A stretch of 64,000 nt of DNA from contig CAYSDJ010000011.1 of assembly GCA_964429775.1 (NCBI GenBank), positions 2,692-66,691 of the forward strand. Reading direction: 5' to 3'. This DNA comes from an uncultured Rhizobiaceae bacterium. GTDB lineage: Bacteria > Pseudomonadota > Alphaproteobacteria > UBA828. The first letter of the stretch is position 1. Each line of letters begins with the position of its first letter. A program made the position numbers and the translations under genes. Below are positions 32,460 to 58,218 of the stretch, in pieces. The notes beneath the pieces were generated by a model. That model made no database searches. It was not told the origin of the DNA and saw only the letters and a program-made list of their open reading frames with translations.

Positions 32460-32582
32460 GCAGGTGGCGCTGATCGTTCAGGCCGGCCTGTGGTGAGGTC
32501 GTGGCGCGCCGGTTTTTCCGGATAATTCGCGCATTTGCGGCCTTGTCGTCGAAATACTCGCTCGCGAGGAGGAGTGCCGACG
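32460..32582 (+). promoter_or_regulatory. long structured 5'UTR of hsp20, possibly a ROSE-type RNA thermometer
   Basis: ~120-nt leader with hairpins (CCGGtttttCCGG) and a strong SD GAGGAGGAG flanked by CUCGCUCG. ROSE elements commonly precede alphaproteobacterial hsp20 genes. Not folded here. Confidence 0.3.
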
Positions 32583-33074
32583 ATGACAAGATTATCGCCG
32601 TTCAACAGCCCGCTTCTGCTCGGGTTCGATCACCTCGAACAAATTTTGCAGCGGGTATCGAAAACTTCCGGCGACGGATATCCCCCCTATAACGTGCTGC
32701 AGACGGATGAAGACTGTCTGCGCATCAGCTTGGCCGTGGCCGGCTTTAGCGAGGATGAATTATCTGTGACGGTGGAGCAGAACCAGTTGCACATCCACGG
32801 CCGTCAGGAGGAAGACCCGGATGCCGTCTTTTTGCACCGTGGCATTGCGGCCCGGCGCTTTCACCGCACATTTTTGCTCGCCGAGAGCATCGAAGTGGAA
32901 GGGGCGACGCTCGACAATGGGCTCTTGAACATCGATCTGGTGCGGCCCGAACCGGCGCAATCGGTGCGCACCGTCGAAATCCAGCGCCGCGCGGCAAAGG
33001 GCGGCGAGAAGAGGCAGCTCTATGAGGGCGCGCGGGATCGCAAGGCAGCGACTACCGGAAGGAGGTCATTATGA
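32583..33074 (+). CDS. Hsp20/alpha-crystallin family small heat-shock protein (IbpA-like)
   Basis: GYPPYNV and GLLNIDL motifs; start ATG 32583 behind SD GAGGAGGAG. Confidence 0.85.
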   Translation: MTRLSPFNSPLLLGFDHLEQILQRVSKTSGDGYPPYNVLQTDEDCLRISLAVAGFSEDELSVTVEQNQLHIHGRQEEDPDAVFLHRGIAARRFHRTFLLAESIEVEGATLDNGLLNIDLVRPEPAQSVRTVEIQRRAAKGGEKRQLYEGARDRKAATTGRRSL

Positions 33075-40355: not shown

Positions 40356-40539
40356 TGGTCTTACTCCACAGCACGCGGCGGCGAGAATTCGCCCCGCCAT
40401 TCATGGCCGCTCAAACGATAGATGTAGTAAATGCTGAACATTTTGTATAATATTTACTCACGGCCATTCGGGTCAAGCGATTTTGAACCATTTGTGGCGC
40501 TGGGCGCAATATTTCTCCGGCGTCGAAGAAAAGTGCGCG

Positions 40540-40547
40540 TTAACCAT
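40540..40547 (+). promoter_or_regulatory. CtrA-type 8-mer TTAACCAT
   Basis: Exact match to the CtrA half-site consensus, ~140 nt upstream of the CheY gene in a low-GC intergenic region. Confidence 0.45.
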
Positions 40548-40638
40548 GTTAAGTGTTAGCCAAGTTGTGCTTCGAGGGGTTAATAGTAATTTACCGAACT
40601 TGACGTTGTGGACTGGCCGGACCACAGTTGTTACCGGG

Positions 40639-40666
40639 ATGGTTAACCATAATTACAAGCTATAAT
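40639..40666 (+). promoter_or_regulatory. perfect palindrome ATGGTTAACCAT (TTAACCAT on both strands) over the -35 position, plus a TATAAT -10
   Basis: Palindrome 40639-40650; TATAAT 40661-40666; ATG at 40689. Confidence 0.5.
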
Positions 40667-40688
40667 AGACGAAAGGTCCGACCCAAGT

Positions 40689-41078
40689 ATGCCGGACGGG
40701 AATAAACCCAAGATTTTGGTAATTGATGATGACGATCTGGTGCGCGCGACGATAGTGGCCGTGCTGGATCGCGCTGATGTTGAGGTTTCTGAAGCCGCCG
40801 ACGGCGATGTCGGCATGCGCCTTTTTGAAGAAGGTGGGCATGATGTCGTCATCACCGATATTCTGATGCCCAACCGTGAAGGTATTGAGACCATTCGCGA
40901 TTTGCGCCGCAGCAATGAGAGCGTGAAAATCATCGCCATTTCCGGCGGCGGTAATATCGACAAAATGCAATTGTTGGATTTGGCGCAAAAATTCGGCGCC
41001 GACCGGGTGCTGCCCAAGCCCTTCACGCCGCAGCAGGTGTTGACCACGCTGGATGAAGTTCTGGCGGAGCGCGCCTAG
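40689..41078 (+). CDS. single-domain response regulator (CheY-like receiver)
   Basis: ILVIDDD acidic pocket, ITDILMP phospho-Asp, conserved T and K; no output domain. Confidence 0.85.
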   Translation: MPDGNKPKILVIDDDDLVRATIVAVLDRADVEVSEAADGDVGMRLFEEGGHDVVITDILMPNREGIETIRDLRRSNESVKIIAISGGGNIDKMQLLDLAQKFGADRVLPKPFTPQQVLTTLDEVLAERA

Positions 41079-41091
41079 ACTTCAACTTGTT

Positions 41092-43521: not shown

Positions 43522-45309
43522 GTGGTGACGGCAAATAAAAATATTGGCGGGACATCTACGCCTTTCGATGAAATGGAATCGCTTGGCGCCCAATCAGGCC
43601 AGTCACCGCCCAACTTCCTGTCTGTCCTCAATGTTTTAAGATTTCTGCAATTGCGGCATTCGCTCAAGTGGACGATCGTTCTTCCCATTCCACTCATCAT
43701 CGCCGTCGCCATAATTTGTATTTCCATATTGGTGCCCAAATTGACGGCGGACAATGCGCGAGAAACCGCTGTGAATTCGGCAATTCAAACCGCGACCCAG
43801 TTCCGGATATTGCGCGAATATTATACCGAATCCGTGATTTCCAAGGCGATGAAGAATGGTGCGTTGTCGCCGAGCCATGATCACCAGACGGATTCAAACG
43901 CCATTCCGCTGCCGGCCACCTTCATTCATGACATGAGTGATCTGCTCAAAAACGAAAACACCACAATGAGTCTCTATAGCGCCCTGCCTTTTCCGTTTCG
44001 AAACGTGCGGGTTCTGGACGATTTTCAGAGGGAAGCGTGGCGTCAGCTTTCCATAGACCCAGAGAGCATCTTCACACGCCAGGTAGATCGCGATGGCAGC
44101 AATTTCTTGCGCGTTGCCATCGCCGACCGGATGGTCACCGAGGCCTGCGTGAACTGTCACAACAGCCACCCCGATTCGCCGAAGACGGATTGGAAACTTG
44201 GGGACGTCCGCGGCATTCTGGAAATCAATACTTCCATTGACGACCAACTCGCCGCCGGGGCGCATCTCGCCAACATATTGATTCTGATCGCCGGGATTGG
44301 CGGCGGCTTTGTCATGCTCATTGCGCTATTCCTCGGGCGGCGCATATCCCTTCCTTTGCTCGGCATGGCACAGACCATGACAGATATTGCGGACGGCAAG
44401 GAAAGTGTCAGAATTTCCGGCGCGGAGAGGCGCGATGAGATTGGTGCGACGGCGCGTGCGCTGGAAGTGTTCAAGCGGAGCGTCGACACCATCAAGAAAA
44501 ACGAAGCCGACCTTCTCCGTATGCGCGACACGCTGGAGCAACGTGTGGTCGAACGGACATATGAATTGGATCATGCGCTGCATATCGCAGAGGAGGCGAA
44601 TCGGGCGAAATCTGATTTTTTGGCGACAATTAGCCACGAATTGCGAACGCCGCTAAATGCCATTATCGGCTTCTCGGAGATTATGAAAAGTGAGGCGATC
44701 GGGCCGATTAAAGCGGAGAAATATCAGGAATATGCGACCGACATAAACTATTCCGGTCAACACTTGCTGGATTTGATAAACGATATTTTGGACCTTACCA
44801 AGGTGGAAGCGGGCAAGTTTGAATTGAAAGAGGAAAATGTCGATGTCGCCGGCACCATCAACGCCTGCGTGGTCATGGTTAGTGAAGCGGCGCGCTCAGC
44901 CAGTCTTACCGTTGAACAATTAATGCCCGATCGGGCGCCCGTTTTGCGCGCAGATCCGCGACTGTTGAAGCAGATCTTGGTCAATCTTCTTTCCAACGCC
45001 GTCAAATTTACTGAAGCGGGTGGCAATATCTCTATCCGCGCATATACATCGGAGGCGGGTGAATTCGTCATTCAGGTTTCCGATACCGGCATCGGCATCA
45101 AGCCTGAAAATATTTCGAAAGTGATGGCGGTGTTCGGTCAGGTCGACAATTCCCTCAGCCGCAAACATGAGGGCTCCGGGCTTGGCTTACCATTGACCAA
45201 GGGTCTGGTCGAACGGCACGGTGGGTCGCTGACGCTGGAAAGCGAGGTCGGTGTGGGCACGGTCGTCACTCTGCAATTCCCGACCTACCGAATTGTTGGC
45301 GGGGCATAA
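43522..45309 (+). CDS. sensor histidine kinase with a periplasmic CXXCH (putative c-type haem, DUF3365/Tll0287-like) sensor domain, HAMP, HisKA and HATPase_c
   Basis: TM1 aa~50-72 and TM2 aa~245-265 flank a domain with EACVNCHNSHPD; ISHELRTPLN H-box; GSGLGL G2 box. The start is uncertain: GTG 43522 or ATG 43573. Confidence 0.8.
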   Translation: MVTANKNIGGTSTPFDEMESLGAQSGQSPPNFLSVLNVLRFLQLRHSLKWTIVLPIPLIIAVAIICISILVPKLTADNARETAVNSAIQTATQFRILREYYTESVISKAMKNGALSPSHDHQTDSNAIPLPATFIHDMSDLLKNENTTMSLYSALPFPFRNVRVLDDFQREAWRQLSIDPESIFTRQVDRDGSNFLRVAIADRMVTEACVNCHNSHPDSPKTDWKLGDVRGILEINTSIDDQLAAGAHLANILILIAGIGGGFVMLIALFLGRRISLPLLGMAQTMTDIADGKESVRISGAERRDEIGATARALEVFKRSVDTIKKNEADLLRMRDTLEQRVVERTYELDHALHIAEEANRAKSDFLATISHELRTPLNAIIGFSEIMKSEAIGPIKAEKYQEYATDINYSGQHLLDLINDILDLTKVEAGKFELKEENVDVAGTINACVVMVSEAARSASLTVEQLMPDRAPVLRADPRLLKQILVNLLSNAVKFTEAGGNISIRAYTSEAGEFVIQVSDTGIGIKPENISKVMAVFGQVDNSLSRKHEGSGLGLPLTKGLVERHGGSLTLESEVGVGTVVTLQFPTYRIVGGA

Positions 45310-47407: not shown

Positions 47408-48028
47408 GTGGTGGCGAGAGGATTTCTAAGCGATAGCCGGCAGGCGGGCGAGGTGCTTTCCAGGCTCGCGGCGGAAGATGCCGCGTGTCTGCCTCTATTG
47501 TCCGCATCTGAACTTCCGCCGTTTCTCGAGGTGGCGCGCGGGCTCAGCTACCGCACCGCTCGGGGAGAAGTCGGCGCCGGCGCGCGCGCGGTGCGGCAGG
47601 ATTTCGATATCTGCATGTCGCCGCCCCGGCCTGGTCTGTTGTGGGACTTGGTGGCGCGGGTGGAGGAATTTCTCGGCAAAGCTCTGGCCGAAAACCAGCC
47701 TGCCTTGCTGGACGGGCCGCTCATCCTCAATGACCTCGTCGTCCAGCACTATCAAGCCGGTTCGCTCGGCATCACCGCACACCGCGATCATGTTCGCTAC
47801 ACGGGCTTGGTCGCGTTGATTCTACTGTCAGGTGAAGGCGGGCGCTTTTATGCCTGCACTGAACGCTCAGGCCTTGATGCGCGCGAAATTCCCTGGCGCC
47901 CGGGCGACATGCTTTTGATGCGCGCTCCCGGCTTCGCCGAACGCACCGACCGTCCATTTCATTATTTGTGCGATGTGACGACGGAACGCTACAGCATCGG
48001 TCTGCGCCACGACACGCAAGAAGATTAA
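47408..48028 (+). CDS. hypothetical protein, probably a 2OG-Fe(II) oxygenase (AlkB-like fold)
   Basis: H-R-D-H...H triad candidates (ITAHRDH, FHYL) and RYSIGLRH 2OG-binding Arg motif. Confidence 0.5.
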
Positions 48029-49836
48029 TCCTCGCCCATCTTGAGGGCGGCGAGGAAGGCTTCGTGCGGGATTTCGACATTGCCGAACTGGCGCATGCGT
48101 TTCTTGCCGCGTTTCTGCCGGTCGAGCAGTTTGCGTTTGCGGCTGACATCGCCGCCATAGCATTTCGCGGTGACGTCCTTGCGCATCGCGCTCACCGTCT
48201 CGCGCGCCACCACCTTGCCGCCGATCGCCGCCTGGATGGCAACCTTGAACAGTTGGCGCGGGATCAGGTCTTTGAGGCGCAAACAGAGCGCCCGGCCGCG
48301 CGATTCGGCCTGATCGCGGTGCACCACCATGGAGAGCGAATCGACCGGCTCGCCATTGATCAGAATGCCGAGCTTGACCAGATTGCTCTCCTGATAGCCG
48401 TCGAGATGGTAATCGAAGCTGGCATAGCCGCGCGAAATAGATTTCAGCCGGTCGTAAAAATCGAACACCACTTCGTTGAGCGGCAGGCGGTAGGTCACTA
48501 GGGCGCGGCTGCCGGCATAGGTGAGGTCGGTCTGCTCGCCGCGCTTGTCCTGGCAAAGGGCCAGAACGGGGCCGAGATAGTCGTCCGGCACCATAATGCT
48601 GGCCTTGATCCAGGGTTCGTCGATGGAGCGAATCTTGGTCGGATCGGGCATGTCGGCAGGATTGTGCAGCTCAAATTCTTCGTCTTGCGTGGTGCGCAGG
48701 TGATAGACGACGCTCGGCGCCGTCGCCACCAGGTCGAGATCGAATTCACGCTCAAGCCGCTCTTCGACGATTTCGAGATGCAACAGGCCGAGGAAGCCGC
48801 AGCGGAAGCCCATGCCGAGCGCCGCCGAAGTCTCGGCCTCATAATGAAAGCTCGAATCATTGAGGCTGAGCTTGGCCAGGCTTTCGCGCAGGCGTTCGAA
48901 ATCGTCTGAATCGGCGGGAAACAGACCGCAGAAGACAACCGGCACGCTTGGCTTGAAGCCGGGCAGGGGCTCGGCCGTTTGGCGCCGCTCCTCGGTGAAG
49001 GTATCGCCGACCTCGCATTCGGAAACATCCTTGATGCTGGCGGTGATAAAACCGATTTCGCCCGGGCCGAGAGCCTCGACAATCTCGTTTTTGGGGGTAA
49101 ACACGCCAACGCGCTCGATATCGTGGATTGAGCCGAGCCCCATCATGCGCACCTTCATGCCCTTGCGCAGATACCCGTCCTGTACCCGCACCAAAATCAT
49201 GACGCCGAGATATTGGTCGTACCAGCTATCGACGAGCAATGCCTTCAAGGGCGCATCCGCATCGCCTTCAGGTGGGGGCAAACGCTCGACCAGCGCATCG
49301 AGCACATCGCTGACACCGGTGCCGGTCTTGGCCGATACCTCCAGCGCGTCGGTGGCGTCGATGCCGATGACATCCTCGATCTGTTGCTGAATGCGCTCGG
49401 GCTCGGCCGAAGCAAGATCAATCTTGTTCAAGACCGGGATCACCTCATGCCCACCATCGACGGCGAGATAGGCATTGGCGAGGGTTTGCGCCTCGACCCC
49501 TTGGGTTGCATCGACCACCAGCAGGGAGCCTTCGCAAGCTGCCAGCGAGCGGCTCACCTCATAGGAAAAATCGACATGGCCCGGCGTGTCGACCAGGTTG
49601 AGGGTATAGATATTGCCGTCTTTCGCCTTGTGCATGAGACGCACGGTTTGGGCCTTGATGGTGATGCCGCGCTCGCGCTCGATATCCATCGAATCGAGCA
49701 CCTGGCTGGTCATCTCGCGCTTTTGCAGGCCGCCGCAAATTTCGATCATGCGGTCGGCCAGGGTCGATTTGCCATGATCGATATGGGCGATAATGGCGAA
49801 ATTGCGGATGTGGGCGAGATCGGTCATGTCGGTCAT
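48025..49836 (-). CDS. lepA: elongation factor 4
   Basis: [14 protein letters not shown]1 motif, DTPGHVDF, LepA C-terminal domain. Confidence 0.92.
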
Positions 49837-49878: not shown

Positions 49879-52287
49879 TCAGCCGCGCAGTTCTCCGCCG
49901 GTGACCTTCTTCACATTGTCGATCACCTTTTTCGCCACCGCCTCGATCTCCGCATCGGTCAGCGTGCGGTCGCTGGGCTCGAGGCGGACGGCGATGGCGA
50001 GCGATTTCTTGCCCTCGCCCACCCCTTCGCCCTCATAAATATCAAACAGGGCAACATCGGCGATCAGTTTCTTATCGACGCCGCGCGCCGCGCGCAGGAC
50101 ATTTTCAGCCGGTACATCGGCATCGACAATAAAGGCGAAGTCGCGCTCGACGGCGGGAAAGTCCGATACGTTCAGCGCCGCCTTGGCGCGCCCGGCCTTG
50201 GCTTTGGGCGTCGGAATGGCGTCGATGAAAAGCTCGAAACCGACGAGCGGAAAATCGACATCGAGGGCGGCGAGGGTCGCCGGGTGCAGCTCGCCGAAAT
50301 GGCCGAGCACATTGGGACCGAGAGCGAGGCTGCCCGAGCGCCCCGGATGATACCAGTCGGGCGCTTCGTTCTTGACCTGCAGGCTCGCCACCGGCGCACC
50401 AGCCGCACCGAGCGCCGCCAGAGCATCGGCCTTGGCATCGAAACAATCGACGTCGCGCGCCGGCGTGTACGGGTTGCGGTTCACCGCCTGTCCGGCGCGT
50501 ACGCCGGTGATCATGCGGTGCTGCGCCTCGGCTTCCTCGCCGGCATATTGCGGACCGCCCTCGAACAGAGCCAAATCAGCAAAGCCGCGATCCGTGTTGC
50601 GCCGGCAGGCCATCACCAGATTGGGCAGGATCGAGGGCCGCATGACACCGAGGTCGCTGCTGATCGGGTTGGCGAGAGTAAGCTCCGGCAAGCCGCCGCC
50701 GAACAGTTTTGCCTGTGCCTCGGACATAAAGGACCAGGTGACCGCTTCGGACATGCCGCGCGCGGCCAGGGCGCGGCGCGCCCAGCCGAGTCGGCGCGGT
50801 GCCAAAGCGATGGCGTTGCCGGCGCGGCGCCGTAAGCGCGGCAGCGAGACAGCCGGAATATTGTCGAAACCGTGGATGCGCAGCACTTCCTCGACCAAAT
50901 CAGCTTCGCCGACGATATCGGCGCGCCATGCGGGCGGCCCGGCGGCGATGTGATCGGAGCCCAATTGCTCGGTCTCGAAGCCGAGATTTTGCAGGATCGT
51001 GTCGCAGGTAAGCGCGTCGAGCTCGACGCCGCCCAACGAATGCACGCGCGACGGGCGGAAGGCGACCTCGCGCCGCCACTCGGGCACGGCGCCAGTGACG
51101 ACCAGTTCGCTCGCCTCGCCGCCACACATGTCCTGTACCAGGCGGGTCGCCACTTCCATGCCGGGCACGGCGAATTCAGGATCGACCCCGCGTTCGAAAC
51201 GATAGCGCGCATCCGATTCGAGATTGAGCTTGCGTCCGGTGGCGGCTGTCCTGACCGGGTCGAACAATGCGATCTCGATGAAGACGTTGGTAGTTACTTC
51301 GGTGCAACCCGAGCTGTCGCCGCCCATCACGCCGGCCAGGCTGAGGACGCCCGTCTCGTCGCCGATCGCCGTCATCTCGCCGTCGAGGGTATATTCCTTG
51401 CCGTTCAGCGCATCGAATTTGGCACCGTCGCAGCCGGTGCGCAGCCACAGGTGATCGCCCGCGACCTTATCGGCATCGAACACGTGCACCGGGCGATTGA
51501 GGTCGATGGTGAGATAGTTGGTCATGTCGACCAGGGCCGAGATCGGCCTGAGGCCAACCGAGAGCAGCCGGTCCTGCATCCATTTCGGGCTGGCGCCATT
51601 GTTGACGCCCTTGATATAGCGTCCGACAAACATCGGGCAGGCGTCTTCATTACCGGCGGCAAAATCGAAACGCACATCGAGCGGGCTCTTGAATTTGCCC
51701 GGAATGGGCGTCACATCGGGCGCGATAAAGCGTCCCATGCCGGCGGCGGCGAGATCGCGCGCAATGCCGGAGACGCCGAGGCAATCGGCGCGATTCGGCG
51801 TTATAGCGATATCGAACAGCGGATCGTCGAGGCCCATATAGGCGGCGAAAGGCTGGCCGATCGGCGCGTCCTCGGGCAGGTCGATGATGCCCTCATGATC
51901 GTCGCTGAGACCCATCTCGCGTTCCGAACACAGCATGCCATTGCTCTCGACGCCGCGAATCTTCGATGGCTTGAGTTTCAGTCCGGTGCCGGGAATGGTG
52001 CTGCCTGACGGCGCGAACACGCCTTTCATGCCGGTCCGTGCATTGGGCGCGCCGCACACCACCTGGACATGCCCCTCGCCGGTATCGATGATGCAGAGGC
52101 GCAGCTTGTCGGCATTGGGGTGCTGCTTGGCTTCGATGACGTGCGCGATATGGAACGGCGCCAGTTTGACCGCCGGGTCCTCGATGCCCTCGACCTCAAG
52201 GCCGATGGCGGTCATGCTGGTGGCCAGCTCGTCGACCGATTTATCGGTCTCGAGATATTGGCGCAGCCAGGACAGGCTGAATTTCAT
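49879..52287 (-). CDS. pheT: phenylalanine--tRNA ligase beta subunit
   Basis: MKFSLSWL conserved start at ATG 52287 (ATGA overlap with the pheS stop); B3/4, B5 and FDX-ACB domains. Confidence 0.9.
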
Positions 52288-53360
52288 CGCGTCAACCCGC
52301 CGACCAGGCTCGGCACGTCTCCGGCGGCGAAACCGTAATGTTTCAGCCAACGTGCATCGGCGTCGTAAAAGGTTCTGAGATCCGGAATGCCGTATTTCAG
52401 CATCGCCGAACGCTCGACCCCAAGGCCGAAGGCGAATCCCTGATAGCGCTCCGGGTCGACGCCCGACATCTCGAGAACGCGCGGATTGACGATGCCGCAG
52501 CCGACAATCTCCATCCAGTCGGCGCCTTCGCCGATGCGCAATACGCCGCCCTCGCGCGAGCAGCCGATATCCATTTCCGCCGAGGGCTCGGTGAAGGGGA
52601 AGTAGCTCGGGCGGAAGCGCACCGGTAGATTGTCGACCTCGAAGAAGGTCTTGGCGAAATCGATCAGGCAGCCCTTGAGGTGCCCCATATGGGTTTTTTC
52701 GTCGACCACCAGGCCTTCGATCTGATGGAACATCGGCGTGTGGGTAATGTCATAGTCGCAGCGATAGGTGCGGCCCGGCGCGACAATGCGGTAGGGCGGC
52801 TTGCCCGCTTTCATGGTGCGGACCTGCACCGGCGAGGTGTGGGTGCGTAAGAGCAGGCGCGAACCATCGTCGCGCTCGGGAAAATAGAAGGTGTCGTGCA
52901 TCTGCCGCGCCGGGTGCTCGGGCGGGATGTTGAGGGCGGTGAAATTGTGGAAATCATCCTCGATATCCGGCCCTTCCACGATGGAAAAGCCCATATCGCC
53001 GAATATCGCCGCCATCTCATCGAGCACCTGGCTGATCGGATGAATGCGGCCTTCATCCTCGGGCCGTACGGGCAGGGTGATATCGACTTTCTCGCCGCCG
53101 AGGCGGGCATCGAGGGCGCCGCCTTCGAGCGCGGCACGGCGCGCATCGAGCGCTTCGGTGAGTTCGCCCTTGAGGCGGTTCAGTGCCTGGCCGGCTTCCT
53201 TACGCGCCTCCGGCTCGAGCCCGCCCAGACCCTTCATGCGTTCGGTCAAGCGGCCCTTCTTGCCGAGCGCGGCGACGCGCGCTTGATCGAGCGCCGCCAG
53301 ATCGGCCGCTTGTTCGAAGGATGCGAGCAATTCCGCTCGAAGCGCTTCTAATTCCTGCAA
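52284..53360 (-). CDS. pheS: phenylalanine--tRNA ligase alpha subunit
   Basis: Class II aaRS motifs ([21 protein letters not shown]); likely TTG start at 53360 behind SD GGGAGGAAAG. The 5' 120 nt of the ORF lack ATG and SD. Confidence 0.85.
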
Positions 53361-53418
53361 GGCTCTCTTTCCTCCCGGCGCCCGCCGCGAGGTGGTCGAC
53401 CGTATTCTATTGCGGGCG

Positions 53419-53781
53419 TCAGTTCTTCGCGAGACTGCCGCGCGCCTGCTCGACCAGCGCTTCAAACGCCTCGGGCTCACGCACAGCGAGATCGGCCAGG
53501 ACCTTGCGGTCGATGGCGATGCCGGCCTCCGAGAGGCCGTGGACGAATTTGGAATAGGTCATATCATGGGCGCGCACGGCGGCATTGATACGCTGGATCC
53601 AAAGAGCGCGGAAATCGCGCTTGCGCGTACGGCGGTCGCGATAGGCATATTGCAGCCCTTTCTCGACCCGCTCGATGGCAACGCGGAAACTGGAATTGGA
53701 GCGCCCGCGATAGCCGCTGGCGCGGGCGAGCACTTTTTTATGGCGGGCGTGGGATGTGACGCCCCGTTTGACGCGAGACAT
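53419..53781 (-). CDS. rplT: 50S ribosomal protein L20
   Basis: [16 protein letters not shown] start. Confidence 0.95.
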
Positions 53782-53793
53782 AGCCGGACTTCC

Positions 53794-53991
53794 TTAAATG
53801 TAGGGCATCCAGCGTTTTACCGCCGGCGAATTGGTTTTATCCATGACGCTCAGCCCACGATGGCTGCGGCGTACTTTCTTTGCCTGTTTGGACAAATTGT
53901 GGCGATGCTTTGCATGGCCGCGGCGCAATTTGCCGCTGCCGGTAATCGTAAAGCGCCCTTTGGTGCTGCTCTTGGTTTTGAGCTTAGGCAT
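53794..53991 (-). CDS. rpmI: 50S ribosomal protein L35
   Basis: MPKLKTKSSTKGRF start. Confidence 0.95.
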   Translation of the reverse strand: MPKLKTKSSTKGRFTITGSGKLRRGHAKHRHNLSKQAKKVRRSHRGLSVMDKTNSPAVKRWMPYI

Positions 53992-54169
53992 TTCTATTTC
54001 TTTCTCTCTATTTTATCGCCCAGCCAGCCTGATAAAATGGCGGGGATGGGCGAATGTCGTTTCAAACCGGGTGGTTGGGCATGCCTTAAGCCGCGCCACC
54101 TCTACGAGGAGGCAGTTTGTAGCCACAGTGGCGCCAAATTGCAAGCGATAGGATGGGCTAATTACGTGA

Positions 54170-54562
54170 CTATTTGGCCATCCAGTGGAGCAGGCGCTTT
54201 TTCAGCATTTTAGGCTGGATCGGCTTGACGATGTAATCGTCCCCGGCCACCTTCATGGCCTTGAGAATGTCGTCTTTTGAATTCAAGGCGGTCTGAAAGA
54301 TGATGCGGCATTTGAGCAGGGGATAATCCTTGCGAATGCGGCTACAGACCTCGAATCCGTCCATATCCGGCATCATGATGTCCAACAGGATGATGCGCGG
54401 CGCGGTTTTCTTGAGAATATTCAGGCATTCAATACCATTCCGCGCGCCGACGAAGCGGTAGCCCATGCTGGCGACCGTCGCCGACAGCAATTTCAGGTTC
54501 AGCATCTCGTCATCGACGCCGAGCACCATGCTGCCGGGCCTGGGAAAACTCTCTTGGGACAT
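54170..54562 (-). CDS. single-domain response regulator (CheY-like) inserted between infC and rpmI
   Basis: VDDE acidic pair, LLDIMMPDMDG phospho-Asp, FQTA, VKP; start ATG 54562 (the ORF's first codon at 54607 is GTG); GC is visibly lower than flanks. Confidence 0.75.
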   Translation of the reverse strand: MSQESFPRPGSMVLGVDDEMLNLKLLSATVASMGYRFVGARNGIECLNILKKTAPRIILLDIMMPDMDGFEVCSRIRKDYPLLKCRIIFQTALNSKDDILKAMKVAGDDYIVKPIQPKMLKKRLLHWMAK

Positions 54563-54648
54563 TTTTATCTCGCCGTGGGATGAACATGGCATGGCCGGTA
54601 AATTCACATTGCCGCGCCACGCGTTGGCACGAGACTAACCGGCAATGG

Positions 54649-55185
54649 TTACTTTTGCGTCACCACCATGGTCATTTGCCGCCCTTCCATTTTGGGCAGC
54701 TGTTCCACTTTGCTGATTTCCTCAAGATCGTCGCGCACCCGCATCAAAACTTTCATGCCGAGATCCTGATGCACCATTTCACGGCCACGGAAGCGCAAAG
54801 TGATTTTCACCTTGTCGCCCTCGCCGAGAAAGCGCCGGATATTGCGCAGTTTGACCTCATAATCGGCGGAACTGATGCCCGGGCGGAACTTCACCTCTTT
54901 AACGTCGATGGTCTTTTGCTTCTTGCGCGCCATCGCCGCTTTTTTCTGGGCTTCGTATTTGTACTTGCCATAGTCCATCAATTTACAGACGGGCGGTTCC
55001 GCGCCGGGTGAAATTTCGACCAGGTCGAAGCCACTCTCGGCGGCAAGTTCTAGTGCTCTATCTATATCGACGACGCCAACCTGTTCACCGGCACCGTTAA
55101 TGAGCCGAACACTGGCGACAGCGATGTCGCTATTTACGCGCGGACCTTCGCGCTTGGGCGGAACTAAACTGGTATGCCTAACGAT
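54649..55185 (-). CDS. infC: translation initiation factor IF-3 (non-AUG start)
   Basis: Hand-translated N-terminus ...[70 protein letters not shown] has no in-frame ATG. Candidate start is ATC 55185 or ATA 55191 behind GAGAGGGGA; there is an in-frame stop at 55207. Confidence 0.8.
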
Positions 55186-55261
55186 GCTTATTCCCCTCTC
55201 TTTTCCTCAACAAATAAAGGCCGCAGAACGGTATTTCCGGCCCGGATACATTAAAAACCAT

Positions 55262-57181
55262 TTAATTTGCCCGCGCCAGAGGCCCTGCCGCCTCTATTTG
55301 AAGTCTATCCACGGCCTCGTCGAGCGCAAGCACTTCTTGCTGTTTGTTGCCGAGGCGGCGCATGGCGACGGTCCGGCCCTCCGCTTCGCGCCCGCCGACG
55401 GCGAGAATGACGGGCAGTTTGGCGACGCTGTGTTCGCGCACCTTAAAACCGATCTTCTCGTTGCGGAGATCCGTCTCGGCACGGAGGCCCGCGGCGCGCA
55501 GACACGCGGCGACTTCCCCGGCATAGGCATTGCTATCATCGGTGATGGTCGCCACAACCACTTGGCGCGGCGCTAGCCAGAGCGGAAAACGCCCGGCATG
55601 ATGCTCAATCAGAATGCCGAGAAAACGCTCGATCGAACCGAGAATAGCGCGGTGCAGCATGACCGGGCGATGGCGCTCGCCATCCTCGCCGACATAGGAC
55701 GCATCAAGCCGCTCGGGCAGAACGAAATCGACCTGCAGGGTACCGCATTGCCAATCGCGACCGATCGCGTCGCGCAGCACGAATTCGAGCTTGGGGCCGT
55801 AAAAGGCGCCTTCTCCGGGATTGAGATGAACCTCAAGGCCGGCGCTCTTGACCGCTTCCATCAAGGCCCCTTCGGCGCGGTCCCAAACTTCATCGGCGCC
55901 GGCGCGCACCGGCGGTCGATCGGCGAAATTGACCAGCACTTTCTCGAAGCCGAAATCTTTGTATATCGACATCAGGAGATCGCAGAAATCCTTGGTCTCG
56001 GGCGTGATCTGATCCTCGGCGCAGAAAATATGCGCATCATCCTGAACGAACCCGCGCACCCGCATCAGCCCGTGCAGCGCGCCGGACGGCTCATTGCGGT
56101 GGCAGGCGCCGAACTCGGCCATGCGCAACGGCAGGTCGCGGTAGCTTTTGATGCCCTGGCGGAAAATTTGCACATGGCCGGGGCAATTCATCGGCTTTAG
56201 CGCCAGAACGCGTTCTTCCGCCTCGGTGGTGAACATATGCTCGCGGAATTTTTCCCAATGGCCGGAGGCTTCCCACAGGGTGCGGTCGACCAGTTCGGGC
56301 GTTTTGACCTCGATATATCCGGCATCGTCGAGACGCGTGCGCATATAGTTTTGCAAGATGCGGTAGAGCTGCCAGCCATCGGCGTGCCAAAACACCATGC
56401 CCATGGCTTCCTGCTGGAGATGAAACAGATTCATCTCGCGCCCGAGGCGGCGGTGATCGCGCTTTTCCGCTTCTTCGAGGCGGAACAGATAGGCCTTGAG
56501 ATCTTTTTCGGTTGCCCAGGCGGTGCCGTAAATGCGTTGCAGCATTTCGTTGTTGGAATCGCCGCGCCAGTAAGCGCCGGCAATCTTGGTCAGCTTGAAG
56601 GCGCCGATGCGCCCGGTCGAGGGCAAATGCGGCCCGCGGCAGAGGTCGATAAAATCGCCCTGGCGGTAGAGCGTGACGTCCTCACCTTCGGGAATAGCGG
56701 CGATCAGTTCCGCCTTGTAGCTCTCGCCGGCCTGCTCAAACAATTCGATCGCCTTGTCGCGCGGCCACACTTCACGGGTGATCTCCTCGTCGCGCTTGAC
56801 GATCTCGGTCATGCGCGCTTCGATAGTCACGAGATCATCCGGCGTGAACGGTTCGGGCCGGGCGAAATCGTAGTAGAAGCCGTCTTCAATGGCCGGGCCG
56901 ATGGTAACCTGGGTGTCGGGGTAGAGTTCCTTGACCGCCTCGGCCATCACATGAGCGGTATCGTGGCGCAACACCTCAAGCCCGGCATCGTCTTTGGCGG
57001 TGACGATACTGACCGCCGCGTCGGCCTCTATCAGGCGCGATAAATCCCACAATTCGCCATCGACCGAGACCACCAGCGCCGCCTTGGCGAGGCCGGGGCC
57101 GATACTGGCGGCAATCTCCAACCCGCTTACGGGCGCATCGAATGAACGTTTCGAGCCGTCTGGCAATGTGATGTCGGGCAT
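55262..57181 (-). CDS. thrS: threonine--tRNA ligase
   Basis: TGS and editing domains; class II motifs; HRA...GSIERF. Confidence 0.92.
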
Positions 57182-57276
57182 GGACCTCTTAATTCTATCT
57201 CTGAATGGCTAAAAGTGGCGGCACTCTAACGGGCGCGTGGCACCTGTCAAGCCGGGCCAGGGTTGCATATTTATGG

Positions 57277-58218
57277 TTAAGGCAACGTCAACGTGGCGCG
57301 CACTTCGTCGACCGGCAAATCCGCCATCCGCGTGCATTGTATCAACCGTACCCGGGCTCCGCGCGGCGCCGTGAGGTCAGGGTCGGAGGCGGCGGAAAAG
57401 ATCACCGTGGCGGCACAGCCGACTGAAGCGACGATATGCATGGGCCCGGTGTCATTGCCGACGGCACCCGCGGCGCGTCGCGCCAGGGCGGCGATCTGGC
57501 CGAAATCGGTGCGGCCGCACAGATTGAGCGCGTCCGGGCAATGGCTGCTGATCTCGGCCAGCACGTCACGCTCCGCCGCCGCGCCGATTAGGACGGGGCG
57601 ATAGCCGGCAGCAAAAATCTCTCTCGCAAGTTCGCCGTAGGCCCGTGCCGGCCAGCGCTTTTCCGGGCGATGTGCCGATCCGCCGGCAACCAGCAACACG
57701 CAAGGTTTCTCATTCCGGCCACCGGGCAGGAGGGCGGAGATATCGCCATCGAGCCAGGCTAGATCCGCATCCGGCACTTCATCGATGCCGGCCATGGCGA
57801 GCTGTTCGCGCTGGCGCTCGACGGTATGCATGCCGTCGCGCCGGGGATTGGCGTGCGGATGCGAGCAGCCCGGCGCAATGCCCGACCATTCCGGCCGGGG
57901 AGTAGTGAAATAGCGGTAATATGCGCTTGAGCGGCTCGAGGTCTGCAAATCATAGACACGGCCGAAGCCGCCCGAGCGCAGGCGCCGGCGCAGGGCGAGC
58001 CAGGCCGGAATATTCCACGCCTTGGCTCTCGGATCCAACCAGATACGGTCGAAATGGTCCGAGCGCTCGGCCATCGCGGCATAAGGGGCGGTGGTGAGAA
58101 GGGTGATGCGCGCCTCTTTATGATGCGCGCGGATGGCGGCGAACGGCCCCATCGAAAGCAGGAAATCGCCGAGGGCGCCATGCTTGATGACGAGAATTTC
58201 GGCCCGGCTCGCGCTCAC
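57277..58218 (-). CDS. glycosyltransferase family 9 (ADP-heptose:LPS heptosyltransferase-like)
   Basis: ILVIKHGALGDF start; GT9 fold. Confidence 0.8.
   Translation of the reverse strand: MSASRAEILVIKHGALGDFLLSMGPFAAIRAHHKEARITLLTTAPYAAMAERSDHFDRIWLDPRAKAWNIPAWLALRRRLRSGGFGRVYDLQTSSRSSAYYRYFTTPRPEWSGIAPGCSHPHANPRRDGMHTVERQREQLAMAGIDEVPDADLAWLDGDISALLPGGRNEKPCVLLVAGGSAHRPEKRWPARAYGELAREIFAAGYRPVLIGAAAERDVLAEISSHCPDALNLCGRTDFGQIAALARRAAGAVGNDTGPMHIVASVGCAATVIFSAASDPDLTAPRGARVRLIQCTRMADLPVDEVRATLTLP

Follow-up and report, generated by a model that had tools for sequence, protein, structure and literature searches.

A lineage-confined single-domain response regulator between infC and rpmI in uncultured Alphaproteobacteria, next to a candidate L20 operator

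Why does a gene for a signaling protein stand inside a cluster of translation genes? The question is raised by a stretch of 64,000 nucleotides from an uncultured Rhizobiaceae bacterium (GTDB lineage UBA828; GenBank assembly GCA_964429775.1, contig CAYSDJ010000011.1, positions 2,692 to 66,691), called here the window, in which open reading frames (ORFs) and Pfam matches define a minus-strand series of thrS, infC, a receiver gene, rpmI, rplT, pheS, pheT, and lepA. The original prediction, made from the sequence without database searches, had put a gene for a CheY-like response regulator on this strand, with infC on one side and rpmI on the other, and ORF coordinates and Pfam assignments bear this out. 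The order thrS-infC-rpmI-rplT-pheST is that of the Escherichia coli and Bacillus subtilis model cluster, with which the window also shares a promoter-like motif and a conserved, apparently structured leader dedicated to rpmI-rplT; what sets the window apart from the model is the additional receiver gene, which follows infC and precedes the promoter-like motif. The reading that we favor, with a probability of roughly 0.6, is that this gene encodes a canonical phosphorylatable receiver from a lineage-confined family, which would have become established behind infC in the distant past, been inherited vertically since then, and be expressed by read-through from infC.

The first point to settle is whether the gene encodes a working receiver. 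Response_reg (PF00072) is the sole Pfam domain of the 145-amino-acid ORF (E 1.4e-24, residues 28 to 139), matching with 86.8 bits against a cut-off of 30.2 and spanning positions 1 to 110 of the 111 in the profile. This longest ORF does open with a GTG at 54607, giving the originally proposed coordinates 54170-54607, but translation probably begins at the ATG at 54562, which yields 130 amino acids, because the homologues all begin with MSQ or MSN there. The phospho-acceptor D61, the acidic pocket D17/D18, T91, and K113 are all present, together with Y110 and P114, and these seven residues are invariant in an alignment of six close relatives. In the wider set of 18 family members, D61 and K113 never change and D17, D18, and T91 hardly ever do, and the D-D-D-T-K set was thus rightly described as intact. 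An AlphaFold2 model (predicted local distance difference test score 83) alternates five strands with five helices in the (beta-alpha)5 arrangement, and Foldseek matched it to the receivers of RR468, DrrB, and PhoP with TM values of 0.81 to 0.86 and root mean square deviations of 1.6 to 2.0 Å. Moreover, the ratio of nonsynonymous to synonymous substitution rates (dN/dS) was 0.10 against the copy at locus L007 (81% identity), compared with values near 0.06 for IF3, L20, and L35, and the receiver gene is under purifying selection. It evolves faster than its neighbors, showing 60% identity to its counterpart at locus L005 where IF3 shows 89%. Judged by sequence and predicted fold, this is a real, functional, and canonical single-domain response regulator.

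Which known regulator does it resemble? The best PDB sequence match is the first receiver domain, Rec1, of Caulobacter PleD (E 6.7e-19; PDB 1w25, 2wb4, and 9g85), with which it shares the acceptor motif IILLD(I/V)MMPxMDGF, and DivK matches more weakly (E 2.3e-13). PleD carries, in addition, a further receiver-like domain and an output domain of the GGDEF type, whereas the protein studied here stops after alpha5. The best NCBIfam match is likewise the first receiver domain of PleD, at 97 bits against a cut-off of 474; the protein scored below every family cut-off in that search and is claimed by no curated equivalog. We rejected a PleD-type diguanylate cyclase regulator on the strength of the single Pfam domain, the length of 130 amino acids, and this shortfall in bits. 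CheY proper was also rejected, as no che or fli genes occur among the 47 window ORFs that were scanned or in the flanks of the relatives and no CheY model is among the 25 best NCBIfam matches. The closest likeness in overall build is to the stand-alone regulators of Alphaproteobacteria (DivK, CpdR, CheY-like, and SdrG/LovR-type), which are likewise receiver-only proteins of about 120 to 130 amino acids with the full D-D-D-T-K set, an aromatic switch residue (Y110 here), and no adjoining kinase gene. Single-domain receivers, which have no output domain, function through contacts with other proteins or by taking up or passing on phosphate, as a sink or a shuttle. Unlike the DivK and CpdR types, the receiver described here has invariants of its own and keeps to one place, with infC before it and rpmI after it, and a Pfam survey of the window ORFs found no cell-cycle, che, or stress-response genes nearby. 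The invariants specific to the family in alignment A8 are C46, within a G-x-E-C-L motif in alpha2, and W127 near the C-terminus, while C73 in alpha3 is nearly invariant. Receivers usually carry alanine at the position equivalent to C46; that C46 and C73 might have a redox role is only a thought. In the alignments, the best-conserved parts of the family are the alpha4-beta5-alpha5 face and the C-terminal helix.

How widespread, and how old, is the arrangement? A word-indexed protein search returned only eight close relatives (60 to 100% identity), and a profile search added about a dozen more (44 to 62% identity), beyond which the scores belonged to generic receivers. The family is confined to one lineage of uncultured Alphaproteobacteria, labeled 'Rhodospirillaceae bacterium' at NCBI. 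A metagenome scan with the family alignment, dominated by the generic motif D[IV]MMPxxD, gave among the matches listed only unrelated receivers of at most 46% identity, none of them near infC, rpmI, or rplT. Ten protein clusters (46 to 100% identity) could be placed on more than 15 contigs, and in all of these the receiver gene lies directly upstream of rpmI-rplT-pheS-pheT. The gene upstream of it is infC in every placed locus whose contig reaches that far, the contigs of L091 and L183 beginning at the receiver with the infC side outside view. The arrangement extends to L180, where the receiver is 52% identical and the concatenated ThrRS, IF3, L20, and PheS are 72% identical to those of the window. 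Some loci carry additional genes ahead of the rpmI promoter: a DyP-type peroxidase gene follows the receiver in L005/L096 (1452-2366), where in L005 it begins 25 nt beyond the receiver stop, and in L182 (3903-4625), and L183 has a second receiver in tandem (151 amino acids, 446-901).

The family has also suffered losses. Locus L009 (CAZUXZ010000089.1, 4571-4888), from a metagenome-assembled genome labeled uncultured Rhizobiaceae, holds a receiver pseudogene at the same site, 42% identical to the window copy, with two in-frame stops and D18 lost; infC, rpmI, and rplT are intact there, with IF3 94% and L20 83% identical to the window. In an IF3-based scan of one genome per species, which gave 80 loci, receiver-like sequence was found in the gap only in L009. 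Receiver remnants were sought in the gaps of L010 and L011, and none were found. A crude neighbor-joining tree, without support values, joins these two receiver-less loci as sister to the core clade and leaves L180 outside both, which suggests an old gain of the receiver followed by at least one further loss. Given the L009 pseudogene, one may ask whether the window ORF is itself a decaying or non-functional remnant. We regard this as barely credible, since the window copy is intact, recurs with 100% identity on at least 18 contigs from several samples, among them marine ones such as JGI 3300008625 and ENA ERZ23498963, keeps all catalytic residues, and belongs to a gene with the low dN/dS given above.

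The leading idea of the original prediction was another origin, a horizontal insertion of a signaling gene into the ribosomal operon, and it described the guanine-plus-cytosine (GC) content of the gene as visibly lower than that of the surrounding translation genes. The receiver does have a total GC of 0.54 against a window mean of 0.61, and the gene is absent from the junction in most Alphaproteobacteria. However, infC (0.538) and rpmI (0.530) are as GC-poor as the receiver (0.542), and only rplT, pheS, pheT, and thrS are higher. The low total arises at the first two codon positions and so reflects amino-acid composition, while GC at third codon positions (GC3) is 0.78, the top of the local range. 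When the synonymous codon choice of 54 window genes was scored against their pooled usage, the receiver proved typical of the window (z +0.29), and the histidine kinase gene at 43522-45309, serving as a positive control, scored z -8.7. Since infC and rpmI are equally GC-poor and GC3 and codon use are native, the low GC is no evidence of foreign origin. Furthermore, no mobility genes flank the receiver in the window or on the contigs of relatives, where the neighbors are all housekeeping genes, and the arrangement is common to all relatives that carry the receiver, out to about 72% identity of the flanking proteins. The outcome that the original prediction had itself named as contrary to an insertion, the same arrangement in relatives with native GC, is what was found. 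The composition of the receiver shows no sign of recent transfer, and a recent insertion is highly improbable.

An old gain leaves the question of why this site was occupied. We surveyed the infC-rpmI junction in 73 evaluable genomes, mostly Alphaproteobacteria. The two genes lie within 300 nt of each other in 20 of the 73, are separated by 0.3 to 3.6 kb in 17, and in the remaining 36 rpmI is not within at least 2.5 kb of infC. Judged from ORF translations only, the ORFs in the 0.3- to 3.6-kb gaps appear unrelated to the receiver, and some lie on the opposite strand. Receiver-like sequence occurs in only one other of the 73 genomes, which agrees with the original view of the receiver as an extra gene relative to most Alphaproteobacteria. 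We infer that two transcription units meet at the infC-rpmI junction and that this boundary is permissive, as the family loci with an added peroxidase gene, a second receiver, or a pseudogene also suggest. The surroundings are themselves stable: the order GT4-GT9-thrS-infC is collinear in many surveyed genomes, with or without the receiver, and a 12-gene neighborhood that includes unrelated genes (GT4, GT9, hydrolase, AhpC) is also collinear in receiver-less genomes. Because these neighbors are equally collinear where the receiver is missing, its positional stability does not exceed background synteny. As a separate observation, the neighborhood of the receiver contains genes for the thiol-redox proteins AhpC/Redoxin and DsbD.

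How, then, would the receiver be expressed? In four species, the 330 nt ahead of the receiver gave no sigma-70-type, EcfG, sigma-54, or sigma-32 motif, and a consensus scan of the minus strand from thrS to rplT found no terminator-like sites. In relatives, 31 to 113 nt separate infC from the receiver; this spacer is unconserved save for GGCGAG just ahead of the ATG and folds no better than shuffled sequences (z -0.93). Downstream, TTGCAA-N16-CTACAA (54144-54117) lies 25 nt past the receiver stop and, as the control for these scans, matches the consensus at 11 of 12 positions. Its general form, TTGC-N-CTAYAA, precedes rpmI in many Alphaproteobacteria, whether infC, other genes, or the receiver stand upstream, and is present there in every receiver-bearing relative. 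From this we infer that rpmI-rplT keeps a promoter-like motif and leader of its own, separate from the receiver. With neither a promoter-like nor a terminator-like motif to itself, the receiver most likely rides at the 3′ end of the thrS-infC transcript and is expressed by read-through.

The alternative that we take most seriously, although we hold it to be unlikely, is that the receiver is an independent passenger transcribed from a non-consensus promoter of its own, perhaps in the 3′ end of infC, and regulated separately, its location at a permissive site being a historical accident. The E. coli operon has internal promoters in thrS and infC. The acceptance of unrelated genes at the junction elsewhere in Alphaproteobacteria, some of them on the opposite strand, speaks for such independence, as does the variable and unconserved infC-receiver spacer, which looks as if nothing in it were needed for coupling. 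On the other side, no motif of the four sigma classes turned up in the 330 nt upstream in four species, and the receiver and infC invariably share a strand, without an intervening terminator-like site.

The original prediction also pointed to a near-CtrA 8-mer, GTAACCAT, just upstream of the receiver. It does overlap the infC stop codon, but it is a chance match that is not conserved in L007, L005, or L009: the window has 18 sites that differ from TTAACCAT at one position, where 17.9 would be expected. A CtrA-regulated promoter for the receiver was rejected on these grounds, the candidate being a single unconserved site with one mismatch that occurs at chance frequency. In the window as a whole, full CtrA-site matches number 8 against 2.0 expected. 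A CtrA-type cluster at 40484-40650 lies within a 690-nt intergenic region (40401-41091, GC 0.46) between an acyl-CoA synthetase gene and ispG (GcpE), and consists of three perfect TTAACCAT sites (40540 on the plus strand, 40639 on the minus strand, and 40643 on the plus strand) and a TTAA-N7-TTAAC-like site at 40579-40595. In addition, a TTAA-N7-TTAA(T) sequence at 55250-55266 overlaps the thrS stop codon and is not conserved in L089 or L007, and TTAACCAT plus TTAAGGCAACGTCAAC occur upstream of thrS at 57273-57292.

Does the receiver act on translation itself? The original prediction offered a regulator coupled to translation status as its second option. Such coupling would be possible only through the probable co-transcription with infC. 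In a stronger form, the receiver would be kept at this site because it acts, perhaps when phosphorylated, on IF3, L20, L35, the ribosome, or the rpmI leader, and so links an environmental signal to the initiation of translation or the assembly of ribosomes. The retention of the infC-rpmI position down to 46% receiver identity and about 72% flanking-protein identity, the conservation of the alpha4-beta5-alpha5 face and of the C-terminal helix with W127, and a transcript probably shared with infC are all consistent with this idea. However, the 12-gene collinearity, which extends to receiver-less genomes, leaves the position little weight; the L009 receiver decayed while infC, rpmI, and rplT stayed intact; L010 and L011, sister to the core clade, do without a receiver; and the receiver evolves much faster than its neighbors, as the L005 comparison shows. 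A literature search for a receiver within infC-rpmI found no paper linking the two. We consider an action on translation improbable. A particular version, in which the phosphorylated receiver, made from the IF3 transcript, would bind some part of the initiation or ribosome-assembly machinery and carry a two-component signal directly to translation, is a long shot whose only positive support comes from the fixed position and the probable shared transcript.

A receiver calls for a kinase, and 47 window ORFs were scanned with Pfam. The only histidine kinase, at 43522-45309 on the plus strand (595 amino acids; Tll0287-like, HAMP, HisKA, and HATPase domains), lies in a low-GC stretch (0.41 to 0.58), departs furthest of all window genes from the common codon usage, and is missing at the corresponding position in L094, although that relative has the receiver. 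By its composition and distribution it resembles a recent insertion, and we rejected it as a conserved neighbor because it is compositionally foreign and missing at the L094 site, though it may still be a partner. The receiver is effectively an orphan as far as the gene content of the window indicates. The kinase gene itself stands between a hydrolase gene and a pair formed by a globin and a ferredoxin-reductase-like gene. The second most atypical codon usage (z -5.2) belongs to an HSP20 small heat-shock gene at 32535-33074 on the plus strand.

Taken together, these results favor the vertically inherited receiver read through from infC, and the following sequence of events would account for them. 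Various genes would have settled at the permissive infC-rpmI boundary in different Alphaproteobacteria, the receiver being the one in this lineage. It would be transcribed by read-through from thrS-infC, its abundance thereby following that of the translation-initiation genes, and D61 would be phosphorylated by an unlinked histidine kinase or phosphotransferase. Having no output domain, the receiver may then, like other single-domain receivers, work through a bound partner protein or serve to drain phosphate out of a kinase network. Several points weigh against this account. The neighbor-joining tree that dates the insertion carries no support values; the window's only kinase is foreign and not conserved with the receiver, and no partner kinase was found there; and the case for co-transcription with infC is built on motifs missing from simple consensus scans, which a non-consensus promoter within the infC coding region would escape. 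A position kept over such deep divergence could also mean more than passive residence, yet unrelated neighbors are equally collinear.

The remaining question concerns the spacer ahead of rpmI, which measures 178 nt, as the original prediction stated, and contains both of the stem-loop strings quoted in it as a possible L20 autoregulatory leader. The spacer does hold a conserved rpmI leader, but the elements of that leader differ from the proposed stem-loops. The first stem-loop, GCCACUGUGGC (also written GCCACTGTGGC), sits in the promoter spacer between the -35 and -10 hexamers and is therefore probably not transcribed with rpmI, and its pairing is lost in L005, L089, and L091; position and unkept pairing led us to reject it as a leader stem-loop. 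The stem-loop CCUC...GAGG is 88% paired in six close sequences with no compensatory change, and 500 of 500 shuffles do as well. The conserved leader is built differently. A helix that we call P1 joins GGUGG (54100-54096) to CCACC (54074-54070) and encloses CGCGGC...GGCAUGCC (54085-54078) followed by CAA (54077-54075); a hairpin UCGCCC/GGGCGA (54053-54048 with 54021-54016) comes next, and a purine-rich ribosome-binding site after it. The GGCAUGCC-(C/U)AA element is found upstream of rpmI in the window and in L005, L007, L009, L019, L027, L053, L057, L072, L015, L178, L180, L182, and L183, and at least 14 lineages share GGCAUGCC-CAA-CC(A/G)CC. The leader stands behind the receiver in every placed receiver locus and also ahead of rpmI in receiver-less Alphaproteobacteria.

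In other lineages, P1 takes the forms GGCGG/CCGCC, GGCGGU/ACCGUC, CAGCGGU/ACCGCUG, CGCGGC/GCCGCG, and GGGUG/CGCCC. Pairs were counted on seven distinct sequences, MAFFT having left the 5′ strand out of register in leaders with long internal inserts; all 35 cells pair, with compensatory change at two of the five base-pair positions, in a structure derived from the very sequences scored. The score was reached by 2 of 500 shuffles, and slid registers pair at 26 to 69%. A cruder helix-finder with shuffle control, run on 12 lineages, gave no individually significant helix (Fisher's combined p about 0.14, calculated by hand). Folded as single sequences, neither the two spacers nor the leader did better than shuffles, and R1, a covariance model made with six close leaders, proved too clade-specific, with nothing convincing outside the clade. 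Helix P1 is thus suggestive on comparative grounds.

The stretch GCC-CAA-CCGCC of the leader resembles E. coli 23S positions 976 to 996, GGGAAACAACCC-AGA-CCGCC, which comprise the H40 hairpin and the start of H41. L20 binds at the H40/H41 junction. Known L20 leaders are mimics with two consecutive G-C pairs and an AA dimer, and they have been listed only for Gammaproteobacteria and Firmicutes, with a candidate in Deltaproteobacteria (PMC7247131). The window leader appears to share these features, with consecutive G-C pairs and an AA dimer beside a suggestive helix. It matches no Rfam family, the Firmicutes L20 leader included: Rfam 15 gave no match in 52000-58000 at E of at most 1, nor across the window at the gathering score. 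A literature search for an alphaproteobacterial L20 leader returned nothing on point. The conserved leader is a plausible candidate L20 operator for Alphaproteobacteria.

The features of the cluster are collected in Table 1. At the upstream end, the start codon of infC is itself unusual. No in-frame ATG, GTG, or TTG is present in the infC N-terminal region, and an alignment of the thrS-infC spacer shows an AUC at 55183-55185, 7 nt past a GAGGGG Shine-Dalgarno sequence, that is conserved in all five relatives. AUC is the likely start codon of infC on this evidence, and such a start would fit the known autoregulation of IF3 via a non-canonical start codon; a non-canonical infC start is also a feature of the E. 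coli and B. subtilis model cluster.

Table 1. Features of the thrS-lepA cluster, in window coordinates and in order of transcription.
Feature	Coordinates	Strand	Evidence or content
thrS, threonyl-tRNA synthetase, 639 amino acids, first gene of the cluster	55262-57181	-	Pfam TGS, tRNA_SAD, tRNA-synt_2b, HGTP_anticodon
infC, IF3, about 178 amino acids	54649-55185	-	Pfam IF3_N, IF3_C; translation; alignment of the thrS-infC spacer
infC-receiver spacer, 86 nt	54563-54648	-	No promoter-like or terminator-like motif; GTAACCAT at infC stop
Single-domain response regulator, receiver only, 130 amino acids	54170-54562	-	Pfam PF00072, AlphaFold2, Foldseek, alignments A6 and A8, dN/dS
Promoter-like motif for rpmI-rplT	54117-54144	-	-35 TTGCAA 54144-54139; 16-nt spacer; -10 CTACAA 54122-54117
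Conserved rpmI 5′ leader, candidate L20 operator	53992-54116	-	Helix P1, GGCAUGCC-CAA, hairpin, purine-rich ribosome-binding site
rpmI, L35, 65 amino acids	53794-53991	-	Pfam Ribosomal_L35p
rplT, L20, 120 amino acids	53419-53781	-	Pfam Ribosomal_L20
pheS	about 52284-53360	-	ORFs; gene calls in identical contigs
pheT	about 49879-52287	-	ORFs; gene calls in identical contigs
lepA, after pheT	48025-49836	-	Pfam

What does the locus mean for these organisms? An interrupted ribosomal operon becomes less surprising once it is seen that the alphaproteobacterial infC-rpmI junction often accepts genes. Single-domain response regulators are common, and the targets of most are not known; the stable address of this receiver within thrS-infC-rpmI-rplT gives it a testable expression hypothesis, read-through from infC, and narrows the candidate partners to a few. 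For Alphaproteobacteria, the candidate L20 leader may be a more useful lead than the receiver itself, and if L20 binds it, the leader would be another independent solution to L20 autoregulation.

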